Shown here one piece after another: positions 3,843 through 44,665 of a stretch of 64,000 nt of DNA; positions within the stretch are counted from its first letter, which is position 1; each line of letters starts with the position of its first letter. The notes under the pieces were generated by a model, which was given only the letters and a program-made list of their open reading frames with translations, had not been told where the DNA came from and did no database searches. Position numbers and translations under genes: made by a program. This DNA comes from Patescibacteria group bacterium. Lineage in GTDB: Bacteria; Patescibacteriota; Minisyncoccia; GWC2-36-17; M10-OD1-4. The DNA lies in contig JBBTYT010000001.1 in NCBI GenBank assembly GCA_038061695.1, positions 1,339 to 65,338 on the forward strand, in the 5' to 3' direction.

Positions 3843-4922
3843 ATGAAACTAAACTTAAATTCAAAAATAGATTTTTTAAGTATTTTTCGTGAACATACAT
3901 TTTTAGGTGTTGATATAGGCACATCATCAATAAAAATAGTTCAGCTTACCAGGAGCGGATTAAAATATAAACTTGATACTTATGGTGAAATTCATTTTTT
4001 TTCAAAAAATGAGAATAAAGAATCAGGAGATTCATTAAAAATGTTGGATAATGATGTTGCCTTTTTATTAAAAAAGATAATATTAGAGTCTGGTGCAAAG
4101 GCAAAGAGAGTGGTTATGAGTGTTCCTATATTCTCATCTTTCTCAATCATTATAGATATGCCTGATTTACCAAGAAATGAATTGACAAAAGCTATAGAAT
4201 TCCAAGCTAGACAATATGTCCCGATTCCTGTTAATCAAGTTGTTTTGAGTTATAATATTATAGGAAGAAAAGAGAATGCATCCGGTAATAATATATTACA
4301 GATTCTTTTAGTGGCGATACCGAATGAAGTAAGAGATAAATATTTTAATATAGCAAATATAGCAGGTGTCAAACTTGTATCTTTGGAGGTGGAAACGCTT
4401 CCAATGGTGCGGTCTGTTCTTAAAAATCTTAAAGAGACAGTCATGATAATTGATTTGGGTTTAAAGTCTACTAATTTTTGTATAGTAGATAACGGTGTTG
4501 TGAGATTATCTCATAATTACGATATATCAGGCAGTTCTATAACGCAAGCATTTTTAGGTTTTTCAGGTGGAGATTATAAGAAGGCGGAAAGTCTTAAAAA
4601 AACGATGGGTTTAAATATGACGCCCGGACAAAAAGAGATGGCAAGAGATGTTTTTCATACTATAAATATTATTACAGCAGAAGCAGATAGAATTATGAGC
4701 AGTTATTTTAATAAGTCTAATGTTAGAATGGAAAAGATTATTTTAAGTGGAGGCTCTGCTAATATGTTTGGCCTCAAGGAATATTTTGCAGATAGATTAA
4801 ATTTAGAGGTCGTTGTTGTTGATCCATTTTCAGGTATTATCTATCCAAAAGAATTAGAGAATATTTTGAAAGATATAGGTCCATCTTTTGCTATTGCCTT
4901 AGGACTTGCGATGCGGAAATAG
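3843..4922 (+). CDS. pilM: Type IV pilus assembly protein PilM (actin-like ATPase)
   Basis: LGVDIGTSSIKIVQL phosphate-1 motif; about 360 aa; followed by pilN/pilO-like genes. Confidence 0.75.
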   Translation: MKLNLNSKIDFLSIFREHTFLGVDIGTSSIKIVQLTRSGLKYKLDTYGEIHFFSKNENKESGDSLKMLDNDVAFLLKKIILESGAKAKRVVMSVPIFSSFSIIIDMPDLPRNELTKAIEFQARQYVPIPVNQVVLSYNIIGRKENASGNNILQILLVAIPNEVRDKYFNIANIAGVKLVSLEVETLPMVRSVLKNLKETVMIIDLGLKSTNFCIVDNGVVRLSHNYDISGSSITQAFLGFSGGDYKKAESLKKTMGLNMTPGQKEMARDVFHTINIITAEADRIMSSYFNKSNVRMEKIILSGGSANMFGLKEYFADRLNLEVVVVDPFSGIIYPKELENILKDIGPSFAIALGLAMRK

Positions 4923-5026
4923 GTTTTAGGTGCTAGGAATTTTTTATTTTGAATATATATTGTTAATGTAGTATAATTAAAAAGTTAAAACATAAAAGCT
5001 AACAGCTATAACTTAAAACCTAAAAA

Positions 5027-5551
5027 ATGCCAGATATTTCATTATTACAAAGTGATTACGAAGTGGTTTTGAAGGAAAGTAGAATCCCTAGTATTTTTCT
5101 TACTGTTTCCATAATACTTCTCGTAGTGAGTATAGGTTCATATGTTGGTCTTTTTTTCTATCACGCCACATTAGCTGAGAATTTGAAGCAGGTTTCCATT
5201 GCCATAGAGAGTCTAAGTATTGAAAATGCTTCAAATGAAGCTGGCAGGCTAAGTAAGATGGGCGGTCAATTAGATGTTATTCAATATTTGAGAGAGTTGC
5301 ATACGGATGCGAACGCATCTTTAGCGGTAATTGCAAAATCAGTTCATCCTAAAGTTTATTATAAAGATGCAGATATAAATTTAGTTCAAGGTGAAGCAAA
5401 ATTAACCGGTATTGCTTTGACACCTAAGTCTTTATCAGAGCAAGTGATGATGTATGCCGGAGAGAAGAATATATTAAGCTACGATATTTCCAATATCTCT
5501 TTAGTTAATGATAATGTTAAATTTGAATTAAACTTAAAGATTAAAAAGTAA
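5027..5551 (+). CDS. pilN: PilN-like type IV pilus inner-membrane assembly protein
   Basis: Single N-terminal TM (IFLTVSIILLVVSIGSYVGLFF) followed by a periplasmic region; position after pilM. Confidence 0.5.
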   Translation: MPDISLLQSDYEVVLKESRIPSIFLTVSIILLVVSIGSYVGLFFYHATLAENLKQVSIAIESLSIENASNEAGRLSKMGGQLDVIQYLRELHTDANASLAVIAKSVHPKVYYKDADINLVQGEAKLTGIALTPKSLSEQVMMYAGEKNILSYDISNISLVNDNVKFELNLKIKK

Positions 5552-5557
5552 GTTTTT

Positions 5558-6133
5558 ATGAATAAGGAATACATAACAGGGACAATCTTTCTTATCATCG
5601 CTGTGATTATCTATATTATTTTTATTGAACCAAAATATGCCGAAGTCAAAGTTACAGCAGAGTCTCTTATTGTAAAAAATAATGAGTTTGATGGTTATAG
5701 CGCTTTTATAAAAGATATTGGAAATATAGTTAAAGAATCAGAAGGAGATTTAAAAAGTATTCAAAAAATAGATTCTATCTTACCAGCATCTAAAAATACA
5801 TCTGATGTCCTTGTGAGACTTGATTATATTGCTTCTAGAAATGGACTACTAATGAAGGATGTGAAATTCTCAAATCCGGTGGCAAAATCTCAAAAAACAG
5901 GTAAATACTCAATTATAGATGTTAAGTTGTTTCTTTTAGGATCTTATAATTCATTTTTAAATTTTAGCAAAGATATAAAAAGTAGTAATCCTCTTATGGA
6001 TATAATAGATATCAAATTTTCCAATAATAAAAAAGATGAGGATAGAAACAAAGAGACGAAAGATGAAGTCGGATTATCTTTAGATCCAATTTTTGAATTT
6101 GAGATGAATATAAGTCTTTATTATCAATCTTAA
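5558..6133 (+). CDS. pilO: PilO-like type IV pilus assembly protein
   Basis: N-terminal TM (TIFLIIAVIIYIIFI), coiled-coil-like region, position between pilN and pilB. Confidence 0.45.
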   Translation: MNKEYITGTIFLIIAVIIYIIFIEPKYAEVKVTAESLIVKNNEFDGYSAFIKDIGNIVKESEGDLKSIQKIDSILPASKNTSDVLVRLDYIASRNGLLMKDVKFSNPVAKSQKTGKYSIIDVKLFLLGSYNSFLNFSKDIKSSNPLMDIIDIKFSNNKKDEDRNKETKDEVGLSLDPIFEFEMNISLYYQS

Positions 6134-6135
6134 TT

Positions 6136-6483
6136 ATGAATATTTCAATTAGAAACTTTTTACCGAAAAATGAAAAAACGAAGCAAGATTTAATGACGAT
6201 TATTTTAATAATCTCAACTTTAATAGTTTTTGTTATGATTTATAACTCTTATTTTAAAAAGGCACCCATTATCTCTGTTGTTGATGATGTAAAAAAGACA
6301 TCAGTTGGCGTTATTTCTTCTGCTGAAGCATCAAGGATTATTGTTGATAAAGTGAAAAAAGATATAAAAAGAATACAAGATGAATTAAAAAATCCTTTTT
6401 ACTCCTCTTTAAAAAAATATGAACCTGCAAGCAGTGAGATGGTGAGTCCAGGAAGAGGTAATCCATTCGTTAATACTTTTTAA
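6136..6483 (+). CDS. Small single-pass membrane protein, hypothetical (PilP-position protein)
   Basis: TM LMTIILIISTLIVFVMIY; 2-nt gap from pilO; no recognisable motif. Confidence 0.4.
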   Translation: MNISIRNFLPKNEKTKQDLMTIILIISTLIVFVMIYNSYFKKAPIISVVDDVKKTSVGVISSAEASRIIVDKVKKDIKRIQDELKNPFYSSLKKYEPASSEMVSPGRGNPFVNTF

Positions 6484-6504
6484 ATGATGAATTGATATTT
6501 TTTT

Positions 6505-8214
6505 ATGCAAAAAACACTCATAGATATATTAATAGCTTTAGGCAAAGTATCAGAAAACGATGCTAAGCTTTTAAGGCAAAATTTAACCACCTCTAAAATG
6601 ACAGAGGAGGATTTTTTATTGACTAAGTTTTCGGAAGATATTATTTTTAATGCAAAAAGTAAGTTTTACGGAGTACCACTTAAAGAGATAGCCGAAGATT
6701 ATCGCATTACAAGTTGGGCTTTATCTCAAATCCCGGAAGAAACGGCAAAGACATATAAATTCATACCGCTTAAGAAAGAGGGGTCACTTTTGGAATTAGG
6801 TATGGTTCATCCGCAAGATATGATGGCATCAGATGCTGTGAAATTTATTTTAACAAGTAAAAATCTCAATGCTAATATTTTTTTAATAACGAATACTCAA
6901 TTTGACTCTCTATTTAAACAATACTCTGCTATTGGAGTTAAAGTGCAAGAGGCTATTTCAGAAATTCAAGAAGATGTGGTTCCTGAGATAAAAATCAATT
7001 CGGACGATGGTAGTAAAATTCTTGCGGAGGCCCCAATAAATAAAATAGTCAATGTGATTTTTAAACATGCTTATGAAGGAGGAGCATCCGATATACATAT
7101 TGAGCCGATTGATGATAATACGCGTATAAGATTTAGAGTTGATGGTGTGTTGCACGCATCTTTATACTTGCCAAAGGAGACTCACAGCGCCATAGTTTCT
7201 AAGATTAAGATATTATCAAATCTTAAGATAGATGAATCAAGAATACCTCAGGATGGAAGATTTAGACAGATAATGTATGATCATCCAGTGGATTTTCGTG
7301 TTTCAACATTTCCAACCACTTCAGGAGAAAAGGTTGTTATTCGTATTTTAGATTCATATTCTGGATTAAAGAAAATAGAAGATCTTGGTTTTGTTGGTTA
7401 TTCTTACGATAAGATAATGGAAGCTCTAAAAAGACCATTTGGTATGGTTCTTACAACCGGACCCACCGGTTCAGGAAAATCTACAACACTACAATCAATG
7501 CTCGGTATTTTAAATAAAGAAGAGGTTAATGTGGTAAGCTTAGAGGATCCTGTAGAATATTACATATCAGGAGTTAATCAATCTCAAGTAAGACCTGAGA
7601 TCCAATATACCTTTGCTTCAGGCTTAAGGAGTATATTGCGTCAAGATCCGAATGTTATTATGGTTGGTGAGATAAGAGATAAAGAGACAGCTAACCTAGC
7701 TACTCATGCCGCACTTACAGGGCATATAGTTTTGTCAACAATTCATACGAATGATGCCCTTGGTGTAATACCCAGGCTTATTGATATGGGCGTGGAGTCA
7801 TTTTTGTTGCCACCGGCATTGAATTTAGTTATAGCGCAAAGATTAGTAAAAAAATTATGTGTCTCTTGTAAAACTACATATAAGCCTGAAGGTAGAGCAA
7901 GGGAAATATTAAATGAGGTTATATTGGGGATGCCTAAGTTTTTACAAGATGAATTAAATAAAAATGAAGTAAATATATGTCAAGCTAAAGGGTGTCCAAA
8001 GTGCTCCGGTAAAGGGACGAAGGGGAGAATAGTTATTTTTGAAGTTATAGAGATGACAAAGGAGTTAAGGGATATAATAATAAATGGACAATTTAACGCA
8101 AAGATTGAAGAGGAAACTAAAAGACAGAATATGATAACGATGAAACAAGATGGTATTATTAAGGTGTTAAAAGGTATTATTTCGCTAGAAGATGTTGTAC
8201 AAGCAACAGTTTAG
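6505..8214 (+). CDS. pilB: Type IV pilus assembly ATPase PilB (GspE family)
   Basis: N-terminal GspE_N-like region, Walker A GPTGSGKSTTL, Asp box, His box and a CxxC...CxxC tetracysteine (CVSCK...CPKCSGKG). Confidence 0.85.
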   Translation: MQKTLIDILIALGKVSENDAKLLRQNLTTSKMTEEDFLLTKFSEDIIFNAKSKFYGVPLKEIAEDYRITSWALSQIPEETAKTYKFIPLKKEGSLLELGMVHPQDMMASDAVKFILTSKNLNANIFLITNTQFDSLFKQYSAIGVKVQEAISEIQEDVVPEIKINSDDGSKILAEAPINKIVNVIFKHAYEGGASDIHIEPIDDNTRIRFRVDGVLHASLYLPKETHSAIVSKIKILSNLKIDESRIPQDGRFRQIMYDHPVDFRVSTFPTTSGEKVVIRILDSYSGLKKIEDLGFVGYSYDKIMEALKRPFGMVLTTGPTGSGKSTTLQSMLGILNKEEVNVVSLEDPVEYYISGVNQSQVRPEIQYTFASGLRSILRQDPNVIMVGEIRDKETANLATHAALTGHIVLSTIHTNDALGVIPRLIDMGVESFLLPPALNLVIAQRLVKKLCVSCKTTYKPEGRAREILNEVILGMPKFLQDELNKNEVNICQAKGCPKCSGKGTKGRIVIFEVIEMTKELRDIIINGQFNAKIEEETKRQNMITMKQDGIIKVLKGIISLEDVVQATV

Positions 8215-8249
8215 TAGTTTTTAGTATTATAAATATAAAGTTTTAAAAT

Positions 8250-8624
8250 ATGGATAGAAAAAAAATTTTAATAATAGAGGATGATGCTCTTTTGTCCAAT
8301 ATGTATCAGACAAAATTTAATTCTGAAGGATTTTGTATGATAGTGGTTGCTGATGGCGAGTCTGGTATCAAGCTTTTATCAGAAGGTCTTAATCCAAGTA
8401 TGGTGTTGCTTGATATTGTTATGCCAAAAATGGATGGTATAGAGGTTCTTGAAAAAATAAAGCAAATGGAGATATGTAAAGATGTGCCGGTTATAATGTT
8501 AACAAATTTAGGACAGAAGGAGAATATTGATAAAGCTACGAAGTCTGGTGCCGTAGGTTATATTGTAAAGGCGAATTATACGCCATCCGAAGTTGTGAAA
8601 AAAGTTAGAGAAATTATAGGCTAG
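8250..8624 (+). CDS. Single-domain response regulator receiver (CheY-like) embedded between pilB and pilT
   Basis: KILIIEDD acidic pocket, phosphoacceptor in MVLLDIVMPKMDG, TNLGQ, K in GYIVKA; 124 aa with no output domain. Confidence 0.75.
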   Translation: MDRKKILIIEDDALLSNMYQTKFNSEGFCMIVVADGESGIKLLSEGLNPSMVLLDIVMPKMDGIEVLEKIKQMEICKDVPVIMLTNLGQKENIDKATKSGAVGYIVKANYTPSEVVKKVREIIG

Positions 8625-8650
8625 ATTAATTAAATGATTTTTTAAATATT

Positions 8651-9718
8651 ATGAATGATTTAAAAAGAGAATTTGAGGCGTTGCTTTACGAGGTTGTTGC
8701 AAGAAAGGCATCTGATTTACATTTATCAATAGGAAGGAAACCTCAATTTAGAATAGACGGCTCTCTGGTTACTTTTGAAGAGGCGGATATCATAAGTGAA
8801 AAGAAGGGTAATGATTTAATGTCTATTCTTATGAGTGAGAATCAGAAAGAAAGATTTTTGGAAAATAGAGAAATAGATTTTTCATATACAGTTGATGGTA
8901 TAGGAAGATTTCGCGTTAATGTTTTTTTTCAGAGAGGTAATTTTTCAGTAGCCTTAAGACTTATTCCAAGCTCTATACAGACATTGGACGAACTTGGACA
9001 TCCTGATGTTTTGCATGATCTTTTAAAAACTTCACAAGGATTTTTTATTGTTGTCGGTCCTTCAGGTCAAGGTAAATCTACTACGCTCGCATCAATGATA
9101 GATGAAATAAATCATCAAAGGAAAAATCATATAGTTACAATAGAGGATCCGATAGAGTATTTATTTGAAGATATTAAATCAATTATTGATCAGAGGGAGG
9201 TTGGTAATGATACAAAAGGTTTTAATGTGGCATTGCGTTCTGTTTTGCGTCAGGATCCAGATGTTATTATGGTTGGTGAAATGAGGGATTCAGAAACAAT
9301 ATCAGCGGCTATTACCGCTTCGGAAACAGGACATCTTGTTTTTTCAACATTGCATACGAATAATGCTTCACAAACAATAGATAGAATAATAGACTCTTTC
9401 CCACCGGCGCAACAGAGTCAGATAAAGGCTCAACTTGCAGGAACGCTTTTAGGGGTTCTTTCAAAGAGGTTAATTCCAAGGATAGACGGAGGTAGAGTAG
9501 CGGCATTTGAGCTTCTAATAGCAAATTCAGCTGTTAGAAATCTAATTAGAGAAGGAAAGACACATCAAATTGATCTTGTTATTGAAACATCAGCAGATAT
9601 AGGTATGGTATCTTTAAATAAATCGCTTTCTTATCTTGTAAAAAGCGGAATTATTACTATGGAGAACGCCGAGATGCACTCTCTTAACCCAGTGGAATTA
9701 AGGATGCTTATTAAATAG
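8651..9718 (+). CDS. pilT: Twitching motility/retraction ATPase PilT
   Basis: Walker A GPSGQGKSTTL; 355 aa; lacks a GspE_N domain; AIRNLIREGK motif typical of PilT. Confidence 0.8.
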   Translation: MNDLKREFEALLYEVVARKASDLHLSIGRKPQFRIDGSLVTFEEADIISEKKGNDLMSILMSENQKERFLENREIDFSYTVDGIGRFRVNVFFQRGNFSVALRLIPSSIQTLDELGHPDVLHDLLKTSQGFFIVVGPSGQGKSTTLASMIDEINHQRKNHIVTIEDPIEYLFEDIKSIIDQREVGNDTKGFNVALRSVLRQDPDVIMVGEMRDSETISAAITASETGHLVFSTLHTNNASQTIDRIIDSFPPAQQSQIKAQLAGTLLGVLSKRLIPRIDGGRVAAFELLIANSAVRNLIREGKTHQIDLVIETSADIGMVSLNKSLSYLVKSGIITMENAEMHSLNPVELRMLIK

Positions 9719-9773
9719 AGGTTTTTAAGTATTAATCTAAAACCTAAAAACTATAACCTAAGACCTAGAAAAA

Positions 9774-10979
9774 ATGTTATTTAAATACGAAGCAAAAACA
9801 TATCAAGGTGAAACAAAGAATGGGACGATTGAAGCATCATCACAGAGTATTGCTGTTGACATACTACAAAAAAGCGATTTAATACTTCTTGATATTGTTG
9901 AGGCGTCAGATATTTCATTAGCTACAAAAAAGCTTAAGTTTTTTGAACATATTCCAAAGAAAGAAGTTTTTATGTTTTCTCGCCAGCTTTCTGTTTTATT
10001 TGAAGCTAAGGTTCCTGTTGTGGAATCTTTACGCACAATGATTGATCAAACAAGAAGCGTAGCATTTAAAGAGATTTTGGAAAAAGTAACAAAGAGCGTT
10101 AATGATGGAAATCCTTTATCAAAATCTTTTGCAGAACATAAAAAAGTTTTTTCTGATTTTTATATAAGCATTGTGAAGTCTGGTGAGCTTTCAGGAAATC
10201 TTGAAACCGTTTTCTCTTATTTAGCCGAGTCTCTTGAAAGAGATTATTATTTAACACAAAAAGTCAGAGGCGCAATGATTTATCCCGCATTTATTATATT
10301 TGCAATGATTGCCGTTACATTTGTGATGATGATTTGGGTTATTCCTAATCTTACTTCTGTTTTTACAGAATCAAATATGGAGTTGCCTTTTTTAACTCAA
10401 ATTATAGTTAATATATCAGATGTATTTCAAGAGTTTTGGTGGTTAATACTTTTTGTTTTGGTTGGTGGAGCGACTGGTTTTTGGCAGTGGGTATCAACTG
10501 AAAATGGTAAAATGATCTGGGGCTCAATCCAGCTTGAAATACCAGTTTTTGGCGAGATTTTAACAAAATTTTATCTTGCAAGATTCTCAGATTCTTTAAG
10601 CACATTAATAGTCGGTGGATTGCCAATTGTAAAATCACTAGAGACTTCTGCTGATGTCGTAGGTAATTATACATATAAAAAAATCTTAAGAGAGACTATT
10701 GATGTTGTAAAAAAAGGAGGAACTATAAGTTCAGTTTTTAGAAGATATAAAGAAGTTCCAATTATGGTTACTCAAATGATTTCAATAGGTGAGCAAGCAG
10801 GTAAGCTGGATGGCACATTGAAGACAATTTCTAAATTTTATAGCAAGGAAGTTGAGAGTGCTATGGATAATATGGTGACATTAATAGAGCCATTACTTAT
10901 TTTGGTGTTAGGAACAGGAGTAGGAATATTGATAGTCGCAATTTTAATGCCGATGTATAATCTTACCGCCGCTATATAG
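9774..10979 (+). CDS. pilC: Type IV pilus platform protein PilC (GspF family)
   Basis: 401 aa with duplicated GspF-like halves, three TM segments, C-terminal ILMPMYNL. Confidence 0.8.
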   Translation: MLFKYEAKTYQGETKNGTIEASSQSIAVDILQKSDLILLDIVEASDISLATKKLKFFEHIPKKEVFMFSRQLSVLFEAKVPVVESLRTMIDQTRSVAFKEILEKVTKSVNDGNPLSKSFAEHKKVFSDFYISIVKSGELSGNLETVFSYLAESLERDYYLTQKVRGAMIYPAFIIFAMIAVTFVMMIWVIPNLTSVFTESNMELPFLTQIIVNISDVFQEFWWLILFVLVGGATGFWQWVSTENGKMIWGSIQLEIPVFGEILTKFYLARFSDSLSTLIVGGLPIVKSLETSADVVGNYTYKKILRETIDVVKKGGTISSVFRRYKEVPIMVTQMISIGEQAGKLDGTLKTISKFYSKEVESAMDNMVTLIEPLLILVLGTGVGILIVAILMPMYNLTAAI

Positions 10980-11020
10980 TTTTTAGGTTATAGTTGCTAG
11001 GTTTTAGTTGTTAAAAATTT

Positions 11021-11389
11021 ATGGTTAAAATTAACTCTTATAAAGATTTAATCGTATGGCAAAGGTCTATGCAATTAGTTGAAAATATTTATAAAATAAC
11101 TGAGAAATTTCCCAAAGAAGAAATTTATGGTCTGACTGCGCAAATGAGAAGATCTGCCGTATCAATTCCTTCAAACATAGCAGAAGGAAGTTGTAGGGGA
11201 ACAAGAAAGGATTACGCGCAATTTTTAAGAATGGCATATGGATCTGGCGCTGAGCTTGAAACACAAATAGAGATAGCAAAAAGATTACTAGGAAAACAAA
11301 AAATTGATTATTCTGACGTTGATAAATTTTTAGATGAAGTAATGAAGATGCTTAATTCTTTAATAAAAAGACTAACCACCAACATCTAA
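11021..11389 (+). CDS. Four-helix-bundle protein (TIGR02436 / 23S rRNA intervening-sequence protein family)
   Basis: YKDLIVWQRSMQLVENIYKIT...EEIYGLTAQMRRSAVSIPSNIAEGSCRG...AYGSGAELETQIEIA is a near-textbook match to the family consensus. The gene is flanked by inverted repeats 10981-11012 and 11388-11424. Confidence 0.85.
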   Translation: MVKINSYKDLIVWQRSMQLVENIYKITEKFPKEEIYGLTAQMRRSAVSIPSNIAEGSCRGTRKDYAQFLRMAYGSGAELETQIEIAKRLLGKQKIDYSDVDKFLDEVMKMLNSLIKRLTTNI

Positions 11390-11542
11390 CAACTAAAACC
11401 TAGAACCTAAAATCTAGCACCTAGTGAAAGAGTTATTCACAGCTGTATTCAATTTAAAGTTGTTAAAATAAATATTTACTTGTATAATATATGAATATGA
11501 TAAATAAATAATTTATTCAAGGTCGAAAGTTAATCAAATCTT

Positions 11543-12052
11543 ATGAGCCACTTAAGCTTAGGGCTTATGAGAATATTAAAGAAAATTATGAAAAGAAATC
11601 AAAAAGGTTTTACGCTTATCGAACTTTTAGTCGTTATCGCTATTATCGGTATATTGTCTTCTATCGTTTTAGTCTCTTTGAATACTGCCAGAGTAAAAGC
11701 TAGAGATGCTAAGAGAACAGCGGATATGCAAGCAATTTCTACAGCTCAGGTTTTATTTGCTGATTCTCAGACAGCATTTAGATATGTAGCAGTTTCAGCT
11801 GCCGCTTGTACTGGCTGGGATGGTGTTAATTGTCCTCTTGTTACAGACGGAGTTCCAGCATTTTCTACTCTTATGCCAGTATTACCTGTTAATCCTTCAG
11901 CAACAGGACTTTATCATTATAAGAATGTTGGTTCTGATTCTACATATTGTGTAGCGGCTGATTTAGAGTCACCTGCTGGAGATGCATTTGTTTGTACTTC
12001 TGTGCGTTGCGCTAAGTTAACTGTTGTATCTACTGCTTGTGTAGAACAGTAA
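11543..12052 (+). CDS. Type IV major pilin (class III signal peptide; prepilin)
   Basis: Leader ...KRNQKG then FTLIELLVVIAIIGILSSIV (G-1, F+1, E+5). Followed by a strong rho-independent terminator. Confidence 0.85.
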   Translation: MSHLSLGLMRILKKIMKRNQKGFTLIELLVVIAIIGILSSIVLVSLNTARVKARDAKRTADMQAISTAQVLFADSQTAFRYVAVSAAACTGWDGVNCPLVTDGVPAFSTLMPVLPVNPSATGLYHYKNVGSDSTYCVAADLESPAGDAFVCTSVRCAKLTVVSTACVEQ

Positions 12053-12080
12053 TTTAGATTCTATTTAATTTAAAATAAAA

Positions 12081-12118
12081 ATTAGCGCACAATATTGTGT
12101 GCTAATTTTTATTTTTTT
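12081..12118 (+). terminator. Rho-independent terminator after the major pilin gene
   Basis: Perfect hairpin TTAGCGCACAA-TAT-TGTGTGCTAA followed by a T-run. Confidence 0.7.
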
Positions 12119-12168
12119 GGAAGTATGATATAATAAATATATCTTTTAATAAATTTTAATCTTAATTT

Positions 12169-12846
12169 ATGAAATATAATATTTTAAAGATGACATTTTT
12201 AATAACTTCTTTTGCTATGCTTTCATTTGTCGGCGCTATCTTAATTAAAAATTCCTACGCTCAGTGGGTTGGCCCCACTGGCGCGCCTCCATCAAATAAT
12301 ACATTGCCCTCTTTAAATACAGGAATTACAGATCAGATAAAAACAGGCGGTTTAACAGTTGGAAGATTAAACACATCAGGGAATATAACTGCAGGCGGAA
12401 TTATTTGTGATTCTTCGGGGTGTATAAATTCTTCTGCTTTAGAAGCAGATCCAACAGTTCTCGCATCTGTTAAAGATGGAGTATCTTGGGCTGAGCTTGC
12501 AACTGTTCCAGCAGGTTTCTTAGATGGTATTGATAATGTTGGAGCAGTTGTCGCAGAAACAGATCCAACAGTTCTCGCATCTGTTAAAGATGGAGTATCT
12601 TGGGCTGAGCTTGCAACTGTTCCAGCAGGTTTCTTAGATGGTATTGATAATGTTGGAGCAGTTACTCTCAATAGTGTTGGAACTAATGAAGTTATTGATG
12701 GCTCTCTAATGATGTCAGATATGAATGCCACGGTTATTCAGGCTAGAATTTCGGGTACTTGTTTATCAGGTATTTCCGTTGTGAATTCAAATGGAACCGT
12801 TGGTTGTGTAGTGGCTGGTTCATCGGAAGCTGTTTACGCTCCATAA
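12169..12846 (+). CDS. Secreted hypothetical protein containing a perfect 38-aa tandem duplication
   Basis: Signal peptide MTFLITSFAMLSFVGAILI. DPTVLASVKDGVSWAELATVPAGFLDGIDNVGAV occurs twice (nt 12448-12549 and 12562-12663, identical). Minus-strand ORF 12333-12731 is its antisense shadow. Confidence 0.6.
   Translation: MKYNILKMTFLITSFAMLSFVGAILIKNSYAQWVGPTGAPPSNNTLPSLNTGITDQIKTGGLTVGRLNTSGNITAGGIICDSSGCINSSALEADPTVLASVKDGVSWAELATVPAGFLDGIDNVGAVVAETDPTVLASVKDGVSWAELATVPAGFLDGIDNVGAVTLNSVGTNEVIDGSLMMSDMNATVIQARISGTCLSGISVVNSNGTVGCVVAGSSEAVYAP
12448..12663 (+). repeat. Two identical 102-bp copies in direct tandem with a 114-bp period (12-bp spacer)
   Basis: The 102-bp unit GATCCAACAGTTCTCGCATCTG...GTTGGAGCAGTT is repeated with 100 percent identity. 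Confidence 0.85.
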
Positions 12847-12863
12847 TTTTGAATTAGAAGATT

Positions 12864-13553
12864 ATGAAAAAAACAATAATAATAACAATAATATTTATAC
12901 TTATTACTATAGTTGTTTTTTCTATTTTGTACTTTTCTTTTTCTTTAAAAAAAGGTGAAGATCTAAGTAATGTTACTACATTAAATGAGAGAGAAATTCA
13001 AAAAAATACTCTTGAGATTATAAAAACAAAAGACTTTTCTCTATGCGAAAATATAAGTGATATTACATATAAATCTGTTTGTATAAATAATATTGCGATG
13101 ATGTTAGCAAAAGAGAGCGGCGATATCTCTTATTGTCAAAAAATGGATGGTAAATTAATAACAACTCAAGAGTGTGAAATACAAACTCTCTCTGTAAAAC
13201 TTTCTGAGAGCGGTGATGCAACCTTATGCGATAAATTCACTAATCAAGTATCTAAAGATGATTGTAAAAATGGTTTTTATTTAAGTGTTTCACAAGAGAA
13301 AGGCGATATTTCTTTATGCAAAAATATAAAAAATAAAACAGATTCAGATTTATGTATTAATTCTTACAATACAAGGAAAGTTTTCTTAAATGATCCGGCT
13401 AACTTTGATTGTTCTTTGATGATTGGTGATGATGCAATATCCGATTGCAAGAAAGTAAAAGATATTATAAGTGATTTTGGTAATAATGTCATTTTGTCGC
13501 CGGATAAATGTTTGCAACTCAAAACATCTTTATTTTCAACTTATTGTATATGA
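12864..13553 (+). CDS. Secreted Cys-rich repeat protein, hypothetical
   Basis: N-terminal TM IIITIIFILITIVVFSILYF; four to five repeats of C-x(10-14)-SGD(I/A)S(Y/L)C. Confidence 0.5.
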   Translation: MKKTIIITIIFILITIVVFSILYFSFSLKKGEDLSNVTTLNEREIQKNTLEIIKTKDFSLCENISDITYKSVCINNIAMMLAKESGDISYCQKMDGKLITTQECEIQTLSVKLSESGDATLCDKFTNQVSKDDCKNGFYLSVSQEKGDISLCKNIKNKTDSDLCINSYNTRKVFLNDPANFDCSLMIGDDAISDCKKVKDIISDFGNNVILSPDKCLQLKTSLFSTYCI

Positions 13554-15070
13554 GATATATTTTTTTATTAATTTTTGCTTTTATATTATCTTCTTTCGGA
13601 ATCAAAGATGTTTTTGCGGCGGAAGGTGATCTTTTGTGGTCAAAAAGCATAGATCAGACATCTAGCCAAGATTCGGCAACAGCTATTGCCGTTGATGCAT
13701 CCGGTATTTATGTTGCCGGGCGTATCCAGAATGTTACTGGCTATGATGCTAAGATAGATAAGTTGTCGCTAGACGGGACAACTGTCATAGCAAGCAGAAT
13801 ACTGAATATAGCAAATCCTTATAGAGCGGAGATCACAGATATAGCTTTAGATGCCACTGGTATATATATATCAGGATATAAGTATGCTTGTTGTCTAGCA
13901 TGGGACCTTGAATGGTTTGTAAAGAAAATATCTTTAGATTTAACAACAGAGATCTGGTCTGATAATCAAAATTATACTGTTGGCGGTAGTACTGAAGATA
14001 CGGCAAATAGCATTGCTGTTGACGCTACTGGTCTTTATGTTGGCGGTTCTATTTTACATGGAGGCGCTGGAAGCAAGTGGCGGTTAGAAAAAAGAAGCTT
14101 AACTACCGGTATTGTCTCGGATTTTGCGATAATAGATGTTGGACCAACCGGTATGTATAATAATCTTAAAAGTATTGATATTGATGCAACAAGTATTTAT
14201 TTAGCTGGTTCTTTTTCTGATTCTTCAAGTAATAAGAATTGGAGGATAGAGAAAAGGGCGATTTCTAACTTAAATACTATTATCTGGGCAAGGAATGTTG
14301 GAACGGGTGCAAATAATATACCTTATAGCATTGCTGTTGATGCTACTGGTGTTTATGTTGGCGGTACTTTTACAACTTGGAATATAAAAAAGCTTTCTAT
14401 TGTTGATGGTACTGTTATTTGGAGTAGAAGTGATTCCACTGTAGTGAACGGCTATCCTGCTAGTATTGATCTTGGAGCACCAGGTAATATCTACTCTATT
14501 GGATATGATATAAAAGTAGGTTCTGATTCTTGGTGGCATTTTGATAAGAGAGATACAAATGGAAATCTTTTGTGGTCGCAAGAAGAAAATCCATCTCTTA
14601 ACTTTGATATTCCATTTGGGGTAGTTATTGATTCTGCAAGCAATGGCATTTATGTAGTTGGCTATGACGCTATTTTAGGAAATGCTAATATTGAGTGGCG
14701 AATAGAGAAGAGAACGCTTTCTCTTATTTGTACTGGTCAAAAAGTATTTGTCTGGACGGATCCTGCTTTAACTGCTGGTCTTACAAAAATAAGAAAGGTT
14801 CATATAGATGAGCTTCGTTCAAATATTAATATTATGCGTTTGGATGCCGGTTTAATAACTTTCTTGTGGACAGATCCTATTATTGCATCAGGAGCTACGA
14901 AGATTAGAGCAACACATATTCAAGAGTTGAGGACAGCTATATTAGATGTTTATACAGCTTGTGGTTCTATAGCGCCGGTCTTTTCTGACGCAACCTTAGT
15001 AGCTGGAACAACAAAAATAAGAAAAGTTCATATAGACGAACTTAGAAGTGCTGTAAATCTTGTTCCGTAA
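13550..15070 (+). CDS. Secreted beta-propeller (SBBP-type repeat) protein with three C-terminal roughly 30-aa repeats
   Basis: Signal peptide. Six or more repeats of (S/A)IAVDATG(I/L/V)YV(A/G)G, the SBBP beta-propeller signature. C-terminal triple repeat WTDPxLxAGxTKIRxxHIxELR. Start chosen at the ATG overlapping the upstream stop (ATGA). Confidence 0.55.
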   Translation: MRYIFLLIFAFILSSFGIKDVFAAEGDLLWSKSIDQTSSQDSATAIAVDASGIYVAGRIQNVTGYDAKIDKLSLDGTTVIASRILNIANPYRAEITDIALDATGIYISGYKYACCLAWDLEWFVKKISLDLTTEIWSDNQNYTVGGSTEDTANSIAVDATGLYVGGSILHGGAGSKWRLEKRSLTTGIVSDFAIIDVGPTGMYNNLKSIDIDATSIYLAGSFSDSSSNKNWRIEKRAISNLNTIIWARNVGTGANNIPYSIAVDATGVYVGGTFTTWNIKKLSIVDGTVIWSRSDSTVVNGYPASIDLGAPGNIYSIGYDIKVGSDSWWHFDKRDTNGNLLWSQEENPSLNFDIPFGVVIDSASNGIYVVGYDAILGNANIEWRIEKRTLSLICTGQKVFVWTDPALTAGLTKIRKVHIDELRSNINIMRLDAGLITFLWTDPIIASGATKIRATHIQELRTAILDVYTACGSIAPVFSDATLVAGTTKIRKVHIDELRSAVNLVP

Positions 15071-15073
15071 TAT

Positions 15074-15847
15074 ATGATATTATTTTTTATATTTTTATTC
15101 GGTCTTATAATCGGTTCTTTTTTGAACGCCGTCATATATCGCCTTGAGGTTGGCGGTTCTTTGGTTACAGAGAGATCTCGCTGTCCGCTTTGTGGAGGTA
15201 CATTAAGCTGGTATGAGCTTATACCTCTTCTATCTTTTTTATTTCAAAAAGGACGCTGTCTTTCTTGCGGTGAGAAGATATCTTGGCAATATCCCATAGT
15301 AGAGCTTTTAACAGGATTTTTATTTCTTTTGACAGCTTTTTTAAAAGAGGGTTCTCTTTTAGATATGACACCAGTAGATATTATATATATTTTTATCGTC
15401 ATGACCTTTTTGGTCTTGATATTTATTTTTGACGGAAAACATTATATAATACCTAATGTAGCTATTTATCCGCTCATTGCTATGTCATTCTTTTACAATA
15501 TATATTCTTTAGGTATTACAGGGCTTTATTACTTTTTAGGAGCATTTATAGCATCGGGGTTTTTTCTTCTGCTTTATCTTATCTCTTCAGGCAAGTGGAT
15601 AGGTATGGGGGATGTAAAGTATGGTGCATTTATGGGTTTTTTCTTACCATGGACGAATGTTCTAGTTGCTCTTTTTATCGCTTATGTTATCGGTGCTATT
15701 TTTGGACTAGCTCTATTGTATTTAAGAAAGAAAGGCTTAAAAAGTGAGATTCCATTCGGTCCATTTTTAATTATAGGGACATTGATAGCATATTTTTTTG
15801 GAACTGATATATTAAGCTGGTATCTAGGCGGAGTTTTTTCTTTTTAG
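15074..15847 (+). CDS. pilD: Prepilin peptidase PilD (A24 family)
   Basis: CPLCGGTLSWYELIPLLSF...GRCLSCGEKISWQYP zinc tetracysteine; polytopic membrane protein; GMGDVKYG catalytic-Asp region. Confidence 0.8.
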   Translation: MILFFIFLFGLIIGSFLNAVIYRLEVGGSLVTERSRCPLCGGTLSWYELIPLLSFLFQKGRCLSCGEKISWQYPIVELLTGFLFLLTAFLKEGSLLDMTPVDIIYIFIVMTFLVLIFIFDGKHYIIPNVAIYPLIAMSFFYNIYSLGITGLYYFLGAFIASGFFLLLYLISSGKWIGMGDVKYGAFMGFFLPWTNVLVALFIAYVIGAIFGLALLYLRKKGLKSEIPFGPFLIIGTLIAYFFGTDILSWYLGGVFSF

Positions 15848-15943
15848 TTGTTAGCTTTTAGAATTAAAATAAAAGAAAAGATAAAAGTGTAAAATGCAAA
15901 GCGAAAAGTTCAAAATAACGACGCAAAATAGAAATAATAAAAT

Positions 15944-16540
15944 ATGCAAAATCTAAAATCTAAAACCTATAACCTAAAACCTAGCGAGGGCTTTACATTG
16001 ATAGAAATTATAATTGCCTCAGCGGTAATAGCTATAGTTTCTATTATAACTGTAGTTAAGGTAGGTACTGGAAATCAGGAACAGGCACTTTTAAGATCTG
16101 CTCAAAAGCTCGCGTTAGATCTAAGGAGGGCTCAAAATTTAGCACTTTCTCCATTAACTACTGATAATTGTGTTTATGGTGTTACAGGAAAAACGACCAG
16201 TTCTGATAGCTATATTCTTTATGTGGCAACTAGCACATGCGACTCTTTTAGTGATAGGAGCTTCCCAAACACCGGCTCTTATAGCGTCTGTAATGTTGAT
16301 GATGGTTGTCTTGGTAGGTATGAATTTGAGGACGGTGTTGTATTACAGACGGGTAATAATTTTGATATTTCATTTCTTCCTCCAGAACCAATATCTCTTT
16401 CTAATGGCAGAACTGCTGGTCCGCCTGGTTCTGCTTTCAATCCTGGAGGAATAGAAACAATCACCATTAGGTTAGCTAATAATATTGCAAGAGAAAAAAA
16501 AGTAGTAGTAAATAAATTTGGAAATATTGAAATACAATAA
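15944..16540 (+). CDS. Minor pilin / pseudopilin (type IV prepilin-like)
   Basis: Leader MQNLKSKTYNLKPSEG then FTLIEIIIASAVIAIVS. The internal ORF 16170-16454 is an artifact. Confidence 0.7.
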   Translation: MQNLKSKTYNLKPSEGFTLIEIIIASAVIAIVSIITVVKVGTGNQEQALLRSAQKLALDLRRAQNLALSPLTTDNCVYGVTGKTTSSDSYILYVATSTCDSFSDRSFPNTGSYSVCNVDDGCLGRYEFEDGVVLQTGNNFDISFLPPEPISLSNGRTAGPPGSAFNPGGIETITIRLANNIAREKKVVVNKFGNIEIQ

Positions 16541-16578
16541 ACGAGGTTTTAGGTTATAGCTTTTAGCTTATAGAATTT

Positions 16579-17145
16579 ATGAAAAAAATTATATTAAAAT
16601 TTAATAAAACTCTAAAACCTAAAACCTATAACCTAAAATCTAATAGGGGTTTTACTATAGTTGAATCCTTGGTTGCTATAACTATTTTGACTGTTGGCGT
16701 GTCAGCCTCAATAGGAGCTATAATGAGCTCTATTCAACTAGTCTCTAAGACAGAAAATAGAACAATAGCTGTTGGTTTGGCGCAAGAGGGTGTTGAGATT
16801 GTAAGAAATATGAGAGATTTAAATTGGATAGATGGCAATACGCCATGGGATTTGGGGTTAACTGATGATATATTAATCAGTGGTGGTTTCAAAACAGGAT
16901 GCGTTGAGTTTGATAGCGTCTCGTTTGATGTTAATTGTGTTGTCGGCACTTCTTATACTATGAAGCTTATTGATAATGCTGGTAATTTATATTACGGACA
17001 TGATCAATTGAGTCCGGCTACTATATTTTCAAGAACGATTACCTTAACAAGGATCAGCGCTGATGAGATTGTAGTGCGATCTTTGGTTGCTTGTGGAGTG
17101 AATTGCAATATTTCTGTAGAGGAACATTTATTTAATTGGCAGTAG
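16579..17145 (+). CDS. Minor pilin / pseudopilin
   Basis: Leader ...LKPKTYNLKSNRG then FTIVESLVAITILTVGVSA. Confidence 0.7.
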   Translation: MKKIILKFNKTLKPKTYNLKSNRGFTIVESLVAITILTVGVSASIGAIMSSIQLVSKTENRTIAVGLAQEGVEIVRNMRDLNWIDGNTPWDLGLTDDILISGGFKTGCVEFDSVSFDVNCVVGTSYTMKLIDNAGNLYYGHDQLSPATIFSRTITLTRISADEIVVRSLVACGVNCNISVEEHLFNWQ

Positions 17146-37403: not shown

Positions 37404-37651
37404 GATGATTCTCCGTATGAATAGATAAAAAGAACAAAAATAGACCCTTCTTTCAGGGTCTATTTTTATCTTCATTTTTTGTATCTGTAACTTAGATTAG
37501 ATATCTCTTGAAATAAAAGCAAAAATAGGCCCTGAAAAAAGGGTCCAATAATGCATAAACATATTATTTTGTAATTTTTGCAATGACATAATTTAACTAT
37601 ATATAGAAAAAAGTAACTTGTCAAATGATTTTTTTTAAATTATTATAGATA

Positions 37652-37807
37652 GACCTACCACTCAATAACTTTCGTAGCGAAGCTTTTAAATAACGAGCGA
37701 GACGAAGCAAAAAAATAGAGTAATAATGGTTTTATTATGATATTTTTTTGTAAAGTCGTAGCCGTTATTTGAAAATTGTAGTAGAAAGGTTATTGAGTGG
37801 TAGGTCT
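37652..37807. repeat. Long inverted repeat (23-bp perfect core within about 45-bp imperfect arms, about 110-bp spacer) immediately upstream of the M15 peptidase gene
   Basis: AGACCTACCACTCAATAACTTTC at 37652-37674 and GAAAGGTTATTGAGTGGTAGGTCT at 37784-37807. The arms extend imperfectly (CGTTATTTAAAAGCTTCGCTACG / CGTAGCCGTTATTTGAAAA). Confidence 0.8.
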
Positions 37808-37812
37808 AAAAT

Positions 37813-43807: not shown

Positions 43808-44551
43808 ATGATTGATATAAAAGTGTACGAGAGTAAAAAAGATGCACTAAACAATATATCTGATGATATAAATAAAAAGATATCAGAATTCAAAAAAAGT
43901 AATACGCCTTTATTATTTTTAATATCAGGCGGTTCGGTTCTTGAAATTTTAGATTATATAAAAAAAGATTTTTTAGGAGATTTTATGACAATTTCTGTTT
44001 TAGATGAGAGGTTTGATATTACTAATAAAAATAATAATTTTACTCAGCTTTCAGAAAGAGTGATTTATAAAGCGATGGTTTTTGCAGGAGTCAATTTTAT
44101 AGATACAAGCGTAAAGTATGGTCAAACAAAAGAAGAGTTGGCTGATTTTTTTGAAGAAGAGCTTAAGAGCTGGAACGGAAAAAAAATAAATGGTAGAATA
44201 ATAGCAATATTTGGCGTCGGTATTGATGGACATACATCTGGCATTATGCCTTTTTTCAAAGATGAGAAAAAGTTTCTGGAATTATTTGAAGGTGATAGAT
44301 GGGTTATTAGTTATGATGCGTCAGGGAAAAATCAATATTCAGAAAGAGTAACAACGACAAATACTTTTTTACGCCGTATAGATGAAGCCTTTGTATTTGT
44401 AATTGGAGAAGAAAAAAAGATGGCATTAGAAAATATGCAAAAAAATGGAAGTGTAGCGGAAGTTCCAGCGAGAATTTTAGCTGAAATTAACGCCAAGGTT
44501 TATACAAATATACTATTTAAAAACTTTGAAATTACGAAAGAGAAAGATTAA
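43808..44551 (+). CDS. pgl: 6-phosphogluconolactonase (NagB/Pgl family)
   Basis: LFLISGGSVLEIL; 247 aa; lies between gnd and pgi. Confidence 0.55.
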   Translation: MIDIKVYESKKDALNNISDDINKKISEFKKSNTPLLFLISGGSVLEILDYIKKDFLGDFMTISVLDERFDITNKNNNFTQLSERVIYKAMVFAGVNFIDTSVKYGQTKEELADFFEEELKSWNGKKINGRIIAIFGVGIDGHTSGIMPFFKDEKKFLELFEGDRWVISYDASGKNQYSERVTTTNTFLRRIDEAFVFVIGEEKKMALENMQKNGSVAEVPARILAEINAKVYTNILFKNFEITKEKD

Positions 44552-44665
44552 GGTTTTCTTACGTGTGCTCACGCTAATCTGCCGACCAGTAGATTAGCTG
44601 CGCTTACCGTTAACACTTCAGAAAACCTTAATCTTTCTCTTTCGTAATTCGAAATTAAAAAAAAG

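Follow-up and report, generated by a model that had tools for sequence, protein, structure and literature searches.

The type IV pilus operon of a groundwater Patescibacterium (Hainich) carries, at the junctions between its genes, a family of tandem heptamer arrays arranged as polar inverted pairs, one of which encloses an intact gene for a protein of the four-helix-bundle (4HB), or S23p, family. The stretch of DNA analysed, called the window below, is 64 kb long and corresponds to positions 3512–67511 of a contig of 83.7 kb, 76 kb of which were covered. With a probability that we put at about one half, these arrays are the two arms of stem-loop elements resembling the intervening sequences (IVSs) of 23S rRNA, built of tandem heptamers and spread at the level of DNA, whose stems would act as processing sites or mask translation starts. 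This reading draws on the anatomy, folding potential and polarity of the arrays, on the insertion status of the 4HB gene, on the link between arrays and 4HB genes across phyla, and on the turnover of the units in relatives; it would further entail transcription of the arrays within an operon, cleavage by RNase III, translational masking and a mechanism of spread.

All genes of the operon lie on the + strand: pilM (from 3843), pilN (5027), pilO (5558), pilB (6505), a gene for a CheY receiver (8250), pilT (8651), pilC (9774), the 4HB gene (11021), the major pilin gene, pilD (15074) and four pseudopilin genes from 15944, followed by ligA. Arrays span 4916–16646. The repeat is a tandem unit of 7 bases with the consensus CTA[A/T/G][A/C]A[C/N], in which CTA is invariant, and Tandem Repeats Finder gave a period of 7 or 14 at every site. 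A preliminary description of the window had called the unit itself palindromic; it is a tandem heptamer of period 7, and the palindromy lies between arrays, not inside the unit. Scanning for CTA recurring at period 7 found eight arrays of 3–6 units and none elsewhere in the 64 kb, and the pilN array, where one unit reads TTA, makes a ninth. The eight copies of that description are all present, at or within a few bases of the coordinates it gave, and its list missed a ninth, degenerate reverse copy at 15841–15870.

The motif far exceeds chance, for which the expectation was taken from dinucleotide-preserving shuffles. At up to 3 mismatches, its 20-mer has 11 matches against 0.05 expected, and chance or low complexity is rejected as its origin on this ground. 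The 13-mer core has 24 matches against 3.2 expected. All but one weak match fall within 4920–16642. Of the 8 intergenic gaps in the pilus locus that measure 35 nt or more, 6 carry an array, versus 0 of about 22 in the rest of the window, and a further 12 kb of the same contig held none. The earlier claim that the copies are confined to the pilus locus is true for the 76 kb covered. Rfam searches of the whole window at gathering threshold, and of 4800–17000 at E up to 1, returned only three tRNAs and one chance snoRNA match, and a scan for promoters and terminators gave no excess over shuffles. Two promoter-like sites, TTGAAT-17-TATAAT at 4949–4977 in the pilM–pilN loop and another upstream of the pilin gene, are consensus matches only.

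The arrays form five polar inverted pairs. In coding-strand orientation the 5′ arm is (NNNNTAG)n, and in four of the five pairs it begins with the stop codon of the upstream gene; the genes concerned, pilM, pilT, pilC and pilD, all end in TAG, a stop used by only 7 of the 53 other genes. A G-poor, A/C-rich sequence, (CTANNNN)n, makes up the 3′ arm, which ends 1–2 nt 5′ of the pilN and pilC ATGs or falls within the first 12–22 codons of pseudopilins 1 and 2. The arms vary in length and do not form one fixed palindrome, and their outer ends show no direct duplication. One pair holds an open reading frame (ORF); the other four have none, and two of these are decayed.

At the pilM–pilN junction, the 5′ arm (4916..4937; TAG GTTTTAG GTGCTAG G) starts with the pilM stop TAG at 4920–4922, and the 3′ arm (4980..5026), made of partly degenerate AAAAGCT/AAAACCT units, ends 1 nt before ATG 5027 and pairs with 4920–4931 over 12 bp. 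Between pilT and pilC, only a remnant of the 5′ arm is left (9716..9731; TAG AGGTTTTTAAG), starting at the pilT stop TAG and allowing a stem of 7–8 bp only, while the 3′ arm (9737..9771) has five untranslated units, CTAAAAC CTAAAAA CTATAAC CTAAGAC CTAGAAA, and stops 2 nt before ATG 9774. The preliminary description had held that this last copy would encode LKPKNYNLKP in frame. The copy is offset by 37 nt from the ATG, TAA stops occur in the pilC frame, and its own frame reads LKPKNYNLRP. The pilD 5′ arm (15841..15870; TTTTTAG TTGTTAG CTTTTAG) is degenerate and starts at the pilD stop TAG at 15845–15847; its partner (15948..15987) lies inside the ORF of pseudopilin 1 and is translated as the leader NLKSKTYNLKP. 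The last pair consists of a 5′ arm after the pseudopilin-1 stop (16544..16578; AGGTTTTAGGTTATAGCTTTTAGCTTATAGAATTT) and a 3′ arm inside the pseudopilin-2 ORF (16605..16646), translated as TLKPKTYNLKS; over 35 nt these arms are 86% complementary and form a stem of about 33 bp.

The pair that holds an ORF follows pilC. Its 5′ arm (10973..11013; TATATAG TTTTTAG GTTATAG TTGCTAG GTTTTAG TTGTT) includes the pilC stop TAG at 10977–10979, its 3′ arm (11386..11427; CTAACAA CTAAAAC CTAGAAC CTAAAAT CTAGCAC CTAGTGA) overlaps the stop codon of the ORF, and the ORF in the loop (11021..11389) is intact and encodes 122 amino acids. The protein matches PF05635 over profile positions 1–106 of 106 (E 4.4e-38), scores 130 bits with TIGR02436, above its cut-off, and 149 bits with NF008911 (cut-off 137), and matches PDB entry 2GSC (XCC0516) with E 1.9e-28. 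The cassette stands between pilC (9774–10979) and the pilin gene (11543/11588–12052), not within rRNA, Rfam finding no rRNA in the window. Together with its inner stem, the gene is an insertion relative to the syntenic loci L131, L133, L126 and L125, and in L131 the two arms remain, enclosing a loop of about 10 nt. The arms contain a perfect inverted repeat of 16–17 bp with 10998–11013, within 51-nt arms at 76% complementarity. The resulting duplex (−42.6 kcal/mol, z −7.8; none of 300 shuffles as good) closes the minimum free energy structure of the 461-nt cassette.

The 4HB/S23p family was first met in the loops of IVSs in 23S rRNA and has been known since the 1990s. The preliminary description had left the 4HB cassette unlinked to this family, a characterised member of which has a heptamer stem of its own. 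That member is the 23S IVS of Coxiella, in which an S23p ORF lies in a loop closed by a 28-bp stem of terminal inverted repeats, with 2–3 tandem GACAGAT heptamers, varying in number by strain, immediately before the ORF; cleavage by RNase III occurs at the first of these repeats, and the IVS is regarded as a selfish element whose ORF is decaying (PMC4990558). Insertions in the rRNA of Candidate Phyla Radiation bacteria, too, encode an S23p protein (PMC11270868). Like the ORF-bearing 23S IVSs of Coxiella burnetii, Leptospira, Xanthomonas and Brucella, the window element has an ORF of the same family in its loop, a long stem of terminal inverted repeats enclosing it, tandem heptamers as the material of the stem (five and six units in the two arms), and the status of an insertion absent from close relatives. 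A number of differences can be noted. The window cassette lies between protein genes of a pilus operon and not in helix 9, 25 or 45, and four ORF-less pairs of the same unit accompany it. Its arms overlap stops and starts, so that cleavage or pairing would affect mRNAs. Finally, 23S IVSs are excised from the precursor RNA by RNase III without religation; for the window element such excision is a prediction.

A second relative of the protein is Avd of the diversity-generating retroelements, which has a homologous pentameric 4HB fold; PF22296 (bAvd) and NF033474 match the window protein weakly. Reading the 4HB gene as Avd is rejected: the score is 25 bits against a cut-off of 80, and neither a reverse transcriptase gene nor a template or variable repeat is present in the neighbourhood. 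On Anabaena pANA02, the Avd gene lacks strong heptamer arrays.

The association of 4HB genes with arrays was surveyed in 19 genes: that of the window, three in loci selected by the motif (L020, L030 and L039), three from IMG/VR and twelve plasmid-borne ones obtained by tblastn. The IMG/VR genes were found through protein similarity alone and are thus unbiased (the scan of viral contigs gave four loci, three of them distinct), and the gene of L020 lies 3 kb from the seed motif, with a unit different from that of the seed. All 19, from at least six phyla, have short-period arrays on both sides, mostly of 7 nt and of 8 nt in four GC-rich hosts, and about 16 of the 19 array pairs are inverted. One of them, L149, is a true 23S IVS from Azospirillum with CAGAGGA/TCCTCTG arms and the same anatomy as the window cassette. 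As controls, all four strong lag-7 arrays of Anabaena pANA02 (50 kb) flank its single 4HB gene, as do two of four on a Geminocystis plasmid, and such arrays are absent from all 38 window genes that lie outside the pilus locus. Cyanobacterial proteins with arms of the CTAAAAG type are the nearest to the window protein (47–48%); the other Patescibacterial example, whose arms are CAACAGC, shares just 23% identity with it. This small survey suggests that the association between heptamer arrays and 4HB genes is general.

Among the surveyed cassettes, three lie in CRISPR operons, also with heptamer arms: L141 (Pseudanabaena pPg_01), L143 (Anabaena 90 pANA02) and L145 (a Picosynechococcus plasmid), with the order cas6–4HB–cas4 twice and cas10–4HB–cmr3 once. 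As in the pilus case, these cassettes are intercistronic and stand in long operons. The cassette at about 450–1250 of L136 (IMG/VR UViG_3300001682_000446), which has TAGTGGT/ACCACTA arms, seems to break the reading frame of a PglX-like (BREX or type IIG) methyltransferase, whose protein sequence continues on either side of the cassette.

In the relatives, the same junctions carry other units. Of the PilC relatives taken from JGI metagenomes, three are 69–71% identical (L125, L126 and L127) and two 44% (L128 and L129), and the fully syntenic loci L131, L133 and L134 were reached through pseudopilin homologues. At 69–71% PilC identity, CTA-type arrays are already absent and other units take their place. 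Inverted, heptamer-periodic pairs occur at the same junctions in L125 (ATCTATG/CATAGAT), L126 (ATTTAAG/CTTAAAT), L129 (CCACTAG/CTAGTGG), L131, L133 (CTAYAAC, and AGAATAC/GTATTCT) and L134 (GGTTACA). Such pairs, with very stable stems, recur in five or six diverged relatives. They also appear at non-pilus junctions: ligA–gatC in L133, pheS–pheT in L131 and upstream of ligA in L134. The junctions of one genome tend toward a common flavour and orthologous junctions of different genomes do not, the pattern that marks a family of repeats spreading, or being homogenised, at the level of DNA. The preliminary description had likewise concluded that the motif spreads at the DNA level, as REP- or MITE-like elements do, and this is borne out: the motif is translated in two leaders and untranslated elsewhere, with one flavour at every junction of the window genome and others at the same junctions in relatives.

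Two further repeats were seen in these loci. In L126, an identical insert of about 110 nt sits in the loops of two different array pairs (5040–5150 and 6430–6540); it contains a nested second flavour, GAATAAT GAAGTAT GAATTAT, and has no similarity to a 4HB gene. In L129 (5349–5520 and 8343–8510; also in L128), a palindromic element of about 170 nt, TTGAATTACGAAATTATA..., occurs twice in one pilus locus, at intergenic junctions.

Well beyond these relatives, the exact 20-mer CTAAAACCTANAACCTAAAA was found in species-representative genomes at no fewer than 120 places among the matches listed. Its hosts among these matches are Cyanobacteria, Bacteroidota, Patescibacteria, Fibrobacter, Verrucomicrobia, Acidobacteria, Planctomycetes, Proteobacteria and archaea, and the copies are intergenic, often directly before an ATG, beside unrelated genes. 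The contig of the window is not itself among the 120 loci listed. In the same 120 loci, with crude ORFs as gene calls, a CTAAAAC array just upstream of a start is in sense orientation 39 times and antisense 16 times, and genes that end in an array read it as GTTTTAG/TAG in 51 loci versus 23 the other way. Independently of gene calls, an inverted GTTTTAG partner no more than 500 nt away was present on the upstream side of the array in 21 of 101 loci, as compared with 1 of 113 on the downstream side. The TAG...CTA polarity, which is the same from both strands, puts the A-rich arm beside the next start and would fit a constraint from initiation of translation that does not depend on a Shine-Dalgarno (SD) sequence.

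The folding potential of the window pairs is uneven. Besides the 4HB duplex, the hairpin between pseudopilins 1 and 2 (16544–16640) reaches −27 kcal/mol (z −4.2 to −4.7, no shuffle as good), with its stem of about 33 bp and ATG 16579 in the loop. The 12-bp stem of the pilM–pilN pair is marginal (z −1.2 to −1.7), and the pilT–pilC and pilD–pseudopilin-1 pairs fold no better than shuffles. The earlier proposal that each pair can form a stem holds convincingly for some pairs only, and the capacity of the family for RNA stems is supported. Many pairs of the relatives fold strongly, with z from −3 to −10.7, for instance −61.6 kcal/mol in L129 (z −10.7) and −61.5 in L133 (z −7.4). The arms of different genomes cannot be aligned, their units being different, and stem energies and sense against antisense folding were compared instead: in 5 of 15 hairpins the sense RNA is the more stable by 5 kcal/mol or more, and in none is the antisense RNA, which is weak evidence for selection on the transcript.

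The stems had also been thought to enclose the SD sequence or the start codon. There is no SD to enclose: an SD-like motif lies within 25 nt upstream of the start in 4 of the 59 genes of the window. Initiation here appears to be SD-independent, as in Bacteroidota and in many Cyanobacteria, which also have heptamer arrays, and with so few such motifs the accessibility of the start site should dominate initiation.

In the two pseudopilins, as the preliminary description had correctly noted, the array is translated as part of the prepilin leader (MQNLKSKTYNLKPSEG↓FTLIE and MKKIILKFNKTLKPKTYNLKSNRG↓FTIVE). The translated arm gives a peptide of the KTYNLKP type upstream of the cleavage site G↓FT(L/I)(I/V)E, and in these arrays CTATAAC (TAT) replaces the unit that would create an in-frame TAA. 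The prepilin leader may be the sole coding stretch that tolerates the repeat, because prepilin peptidase removes it. Pseudopilin homologues from other Patescibacteria have leaders such as TSHKLKA, INHQLKN, KSYKLKV and TRYSLNS, which resemble what arrays of other units would encode; at the DNA level, inspected in L131 and L133, arrays are present in both. In L036 (1700–4300; metagenome-assembled genome 'bacterium C24_metabat.bin.72'), the annotated pseudopilin leaders carry long GC-rich repeats, for example ERSARRSA..F.DPR..RG in three genes, another repeat family at the position of the heptamer array of the window.

Two groups of published repeats resemble the arrays. Heptanucleotide repeats have featured in descriptions of bacterial genomes for decades, among them the long simple-sequence repeats (LSSR) of Mrazek 2007. 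Cyanobacterial STRR elements, reportedly described by Mazel in 1990, are intergenic tandem repeats of heptanucleotides. TAACTGA repeats occur in Beggiatoaceae, Cyanobacteria and Bacteroidetes (MacGregor 2015, PMC4679880), and TTTTGAA/TTCAAAA repeats in Nostoc 7120 (bioRxiv 10.1101/2022.06.06.494920). The window arrays share with STRR, LSSR and TAACTGA-type repeats a 7-nt unit, 2–6 or more tandem copies, an intergenic location and a sense orientation a few bases from start codons. In both cases, the ORFs that follow often lack an SD sequence and the distribution is patchy across Cyanobacteria, Bacteroidota and others. A role of these repeats in translational control is suspected. Unlike the published heptanucleotide repeats, which have been treated as direct, the window arrays are polar inverted pairs, with the unit CTAAAAC, and no link to a 4HB gene was found in the papers on those repeats. 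The second group comprises the REP, BIME and REPIN elements of enterobacteria and pseudomonads, which are likewise short, intergenic and often intercistronic, spread at the DNA level and arranged as inverted pairs that form hairpins in mRNA, and which can stabilise the upstream mRNA or modulate downstream translation. Unlike the window arrays, REPs are single imperfect palindromes, are not tolerated in ORFs and are not associated with 4HB genes. REPs are mobilised by RAYT transposases, none of which was seen here, transposases not having been searched for genome-wide.

On the reading proposed at the outset, the family would have spread at the DNA level within the lineage into the few intercistronic gaps of the pilus operon and also entered the prepilin leader, a coding stretch that is cleaved off. 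The arrays would be transcribed within a polycistronic mRNA, in which the well-preserved pairs would form long, A-U-rich, double-stranded stems. By analogy with the IVSs of Coxiella, Leptospira and Salmonella, RNase III could cut these stems and so separate the pilC, 4HB, pilin and pseudopilin segments. In this nearly SD-less organism, pairing may also hide the single-stranded, A-rich region at which translation of the next gene starts, as long as neither a ribosome arriving from upstream nor an internal promoter opens it. If pilus expression is affected, this would probably be a side effect of an element that is selfish or neutral, and the effect may have been co-opted.

Several points weigh against this reading. 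Only two of the five window pairs, plus the marginal one, beat shuffles, from which it follows that several arrays are structurally inert now. Any palindromic DNA element yields complementary arms, so that 'compensatory' differences from genome to genome are no proof that RNA structure is under selection. The RNase III gene was not located in the 76 kb of contig covered, and a purely selfish model leaves the enrichment in the pilus locus unexplained, save through the availability of gaps. The sample of 4HB genes is small and partly chosen by motif, its unit consensus was assigned by eye, and two of the twelve plasmid cassettes (L141 and L150) have direct, not inverted, arrays. The unit sequence does correlate with the similarity of the 4HB proteins (Mantel r 0.33, p 0.0003), so that ORF and arms behave as one unit, with host phylogeny as a confounder of this correlation. 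By phmmer and an iterated hidden Markov model, a 4HB gene is present in only 4 of the 120 motif-selected loci listed, and ORF-less arrays far outnumber 4HB genes. The idea that arrays always stand beside a 4HB gene is rejected on this count, and the converse held, every 4HB gene inspected lying within arrays. The empty loops of the relatives contain no 4HB remnants (tblastn, E up to 1), and the empty pairs may not derive from the cassette at all. Given this weak association from the side of the arrays and the lack of remnants, the ORF-less arrays may be an independent, older layer that received the gene.

A wider version of the proposal, which we regard as rather unlikely, takes the 4HB gene and its inverted arrays as one family of horizontally mobile cassettes, present in 23S rRNA and in operon spacers (pilus, cas and others) of at least six phyla, whose unit co-evolves with the protein and of which the ORF-less arrays (STRR, TAACTGA and CTAAAAC) would be non-autonomous derivatives. 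If so, the pentameric protein would recognise, protect or propagate its own heptamer arrays, and a single answer would cover both what S23p does and where bacterial heptanucleotide repeats come from.

Among the alternatives, the one that survives best is that the arrays are functionless debris of a process that generates repeats, either slippage on 7-nt units or the decay of a mobile palindrome, kept where harmless, in intercistronic gaps and the cleaved prepilin leader, and oriented by purifying selection only. This overlaps with the IVS-like reading, both assuming a selfish origin. Fast turnover among relatives at 69–71% PilC identity, the decay of two window pairs, the presence of the same 20-mer beside unrelated genes in many phyla among the matches listed, and the standing of the Coxiella IVS as a selfish element with a decaying ORF (PMC4990558) are all as expected of debris, and heptanucleotides are said to be the commonest long simple repeats in many genomes (Mrazek 2007, as cited in PMC4679880). 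Debris would hardly yield strong stems at the same junctions in five or six diverged relatives, a pair polarity of 21 to 1 among the matches listed, better folding of the sense than of the antisense strand, or a 4HB ORF that is intact and of full length, and we regard this explanation as rather unlikely.

A different proposal gives the function to the (CUAAAAC)n array itself, as an unstructured 5′ leader that recruits ribosomes without an SD sequence, the mediator being S1 or a protein of the cold-shock type, each domain of which binds about 7 nt; the GTTTTAG arms would then be incidental or anti-leaders. A leader function of this kind has been proposed for TAACTGA in Beggiatoaceae (PMC4679880) and for the heptamers of Nostoc (bioRxiv 10.1101/2022.06.06.494920). 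The preference for sense orientation before starts across phyla (39 versus 16 among the matches listed), the fixed polarity that sets the A-rich arm beside the downstream start, and the near absence of SD motifs (4 of 59 genes) all agree with it. Yet only 4–5 of the 59 window genes have such a leader, the major pilin and ribosomal protein genes being without one, and half of the arrays are the opposite, G/U-rich arm after stop codons. Nor are the leaders conserved at orthologous starts in relatives with 70% PilC identity, and the association with 4HB genes is left unexplained. A leader function as the main explanation is thus unlikely.

Phase variation is improbable. Here slipped-strand changes in the number of 7-nt units would shift the frame of the pseudopilin leaders or alter the length of 5′ untranslated regions (UTRs), switching pilus components on and off in the manner of the simple-sequence contingency loci of pathogens. 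In its favour, seven is not divisible by three, a pair of arrays falls within the 5′ ends of genes for a surface structure, the number of heptamers in Coxiella varies between strains (PMC4990558), and heptanucleotide repeats control the HMW adhesins of Haemophilus, with RNase III involved (PMC12721329). Against this, neighbouring units differ at 1–3 positions, which suppresses slippage, and most arrays are outside ORFs. Contigs from four runs (L001–L004) are 100% identical over four arrays outside the pseudopilin ORFs, and no length variant of the pseudopilins was present in a collection of 5.8 billion proteins.

Very improbable, finally, is the suggestion of the preliminary description that the motif is an array of DNA-binding sites through which a pilus regulator, a partner of the CheY-like protein or a sigma factor, coordinates pilus transcription. 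The restriction of arrays to the pilus locus in the contig (6 of 8 gaps versus 0 of about 22) and tandem heptads at the cholera toxin promoter, which ToxR and ToxT reportedly bind, speak for it. Comparative data already largely refute it, the unit differing at orthologous junctions and arrays lying at non-pilus junctions in relatives and beside unrelated genes in many phyla. In addition, with a period of 7 bp neighbouring sites would not face the same side of the helix, the CheY-like protein consists of a receiver domain alone and lacks any domain for binding DNA, and arrays occur after stops and inside ORFs as often as at promoter-like positions.

Some neighbouring features deserve mention in their own right. 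The 5′ UTR of the major pilin (11515–11590) contains a conserved element in which a 9-bp hairpin, UCAUGAGCC / GGCUUAUGA, comes after an AAAGGTCGA box; the hairpin loop, CAAGCUUGG, is conserved. The element is also found in L125 (6590–6670), L126 (6630–6712), L133 (7085–7165) and L134 (8495–8570), the hairpin shows compensatory changes in two pairs, and Rfam has no match for it. The true start of the pilin is probably ATG 11588 (MKRNQKG↓FTLIE) and not 11543. Within ORF 12169–12846, which adjoins the pilin gene and encodes a secreted-looking protein, a unit of 114 bp is duplicated in tandem with 99% identity (12441–12663), and the short-read Logan contigs of the window organism all break at this duplication. 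Two other long intergenic palindromes, at 44525–44654 (42-nt arms, 90% complementary) and 37650–37808 (77-nt arms, 71%), are unrelated in sequence to the heptamer arrays; the former has no copy among the relatives fetched and no similarity to the elements of L129.

Heptanucleotide repeats upstream of starts and ORF-bearing rRNA IVSs have each been described but remain unexplained. The window joins the two, with a complete S23p cassette with heptamer arms in a protein-coding operon, beside ORF-less pairs. In the literature searched, mostly without subscription journals, no paper was found that generalises the link between heptamers and S23p or describes S23p cassettes in mRNA operons. For the pilus locus, the finding calls for caution, and the motif should not be taken as a dedicated regulator site. 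If the association of arrays with 4HB genes holds, it would offer a new way to read both the 'four helix bundle protein' annotations and the intergenic repeats of Patescibacteria, Cyanobacteria and Bacteroidota.

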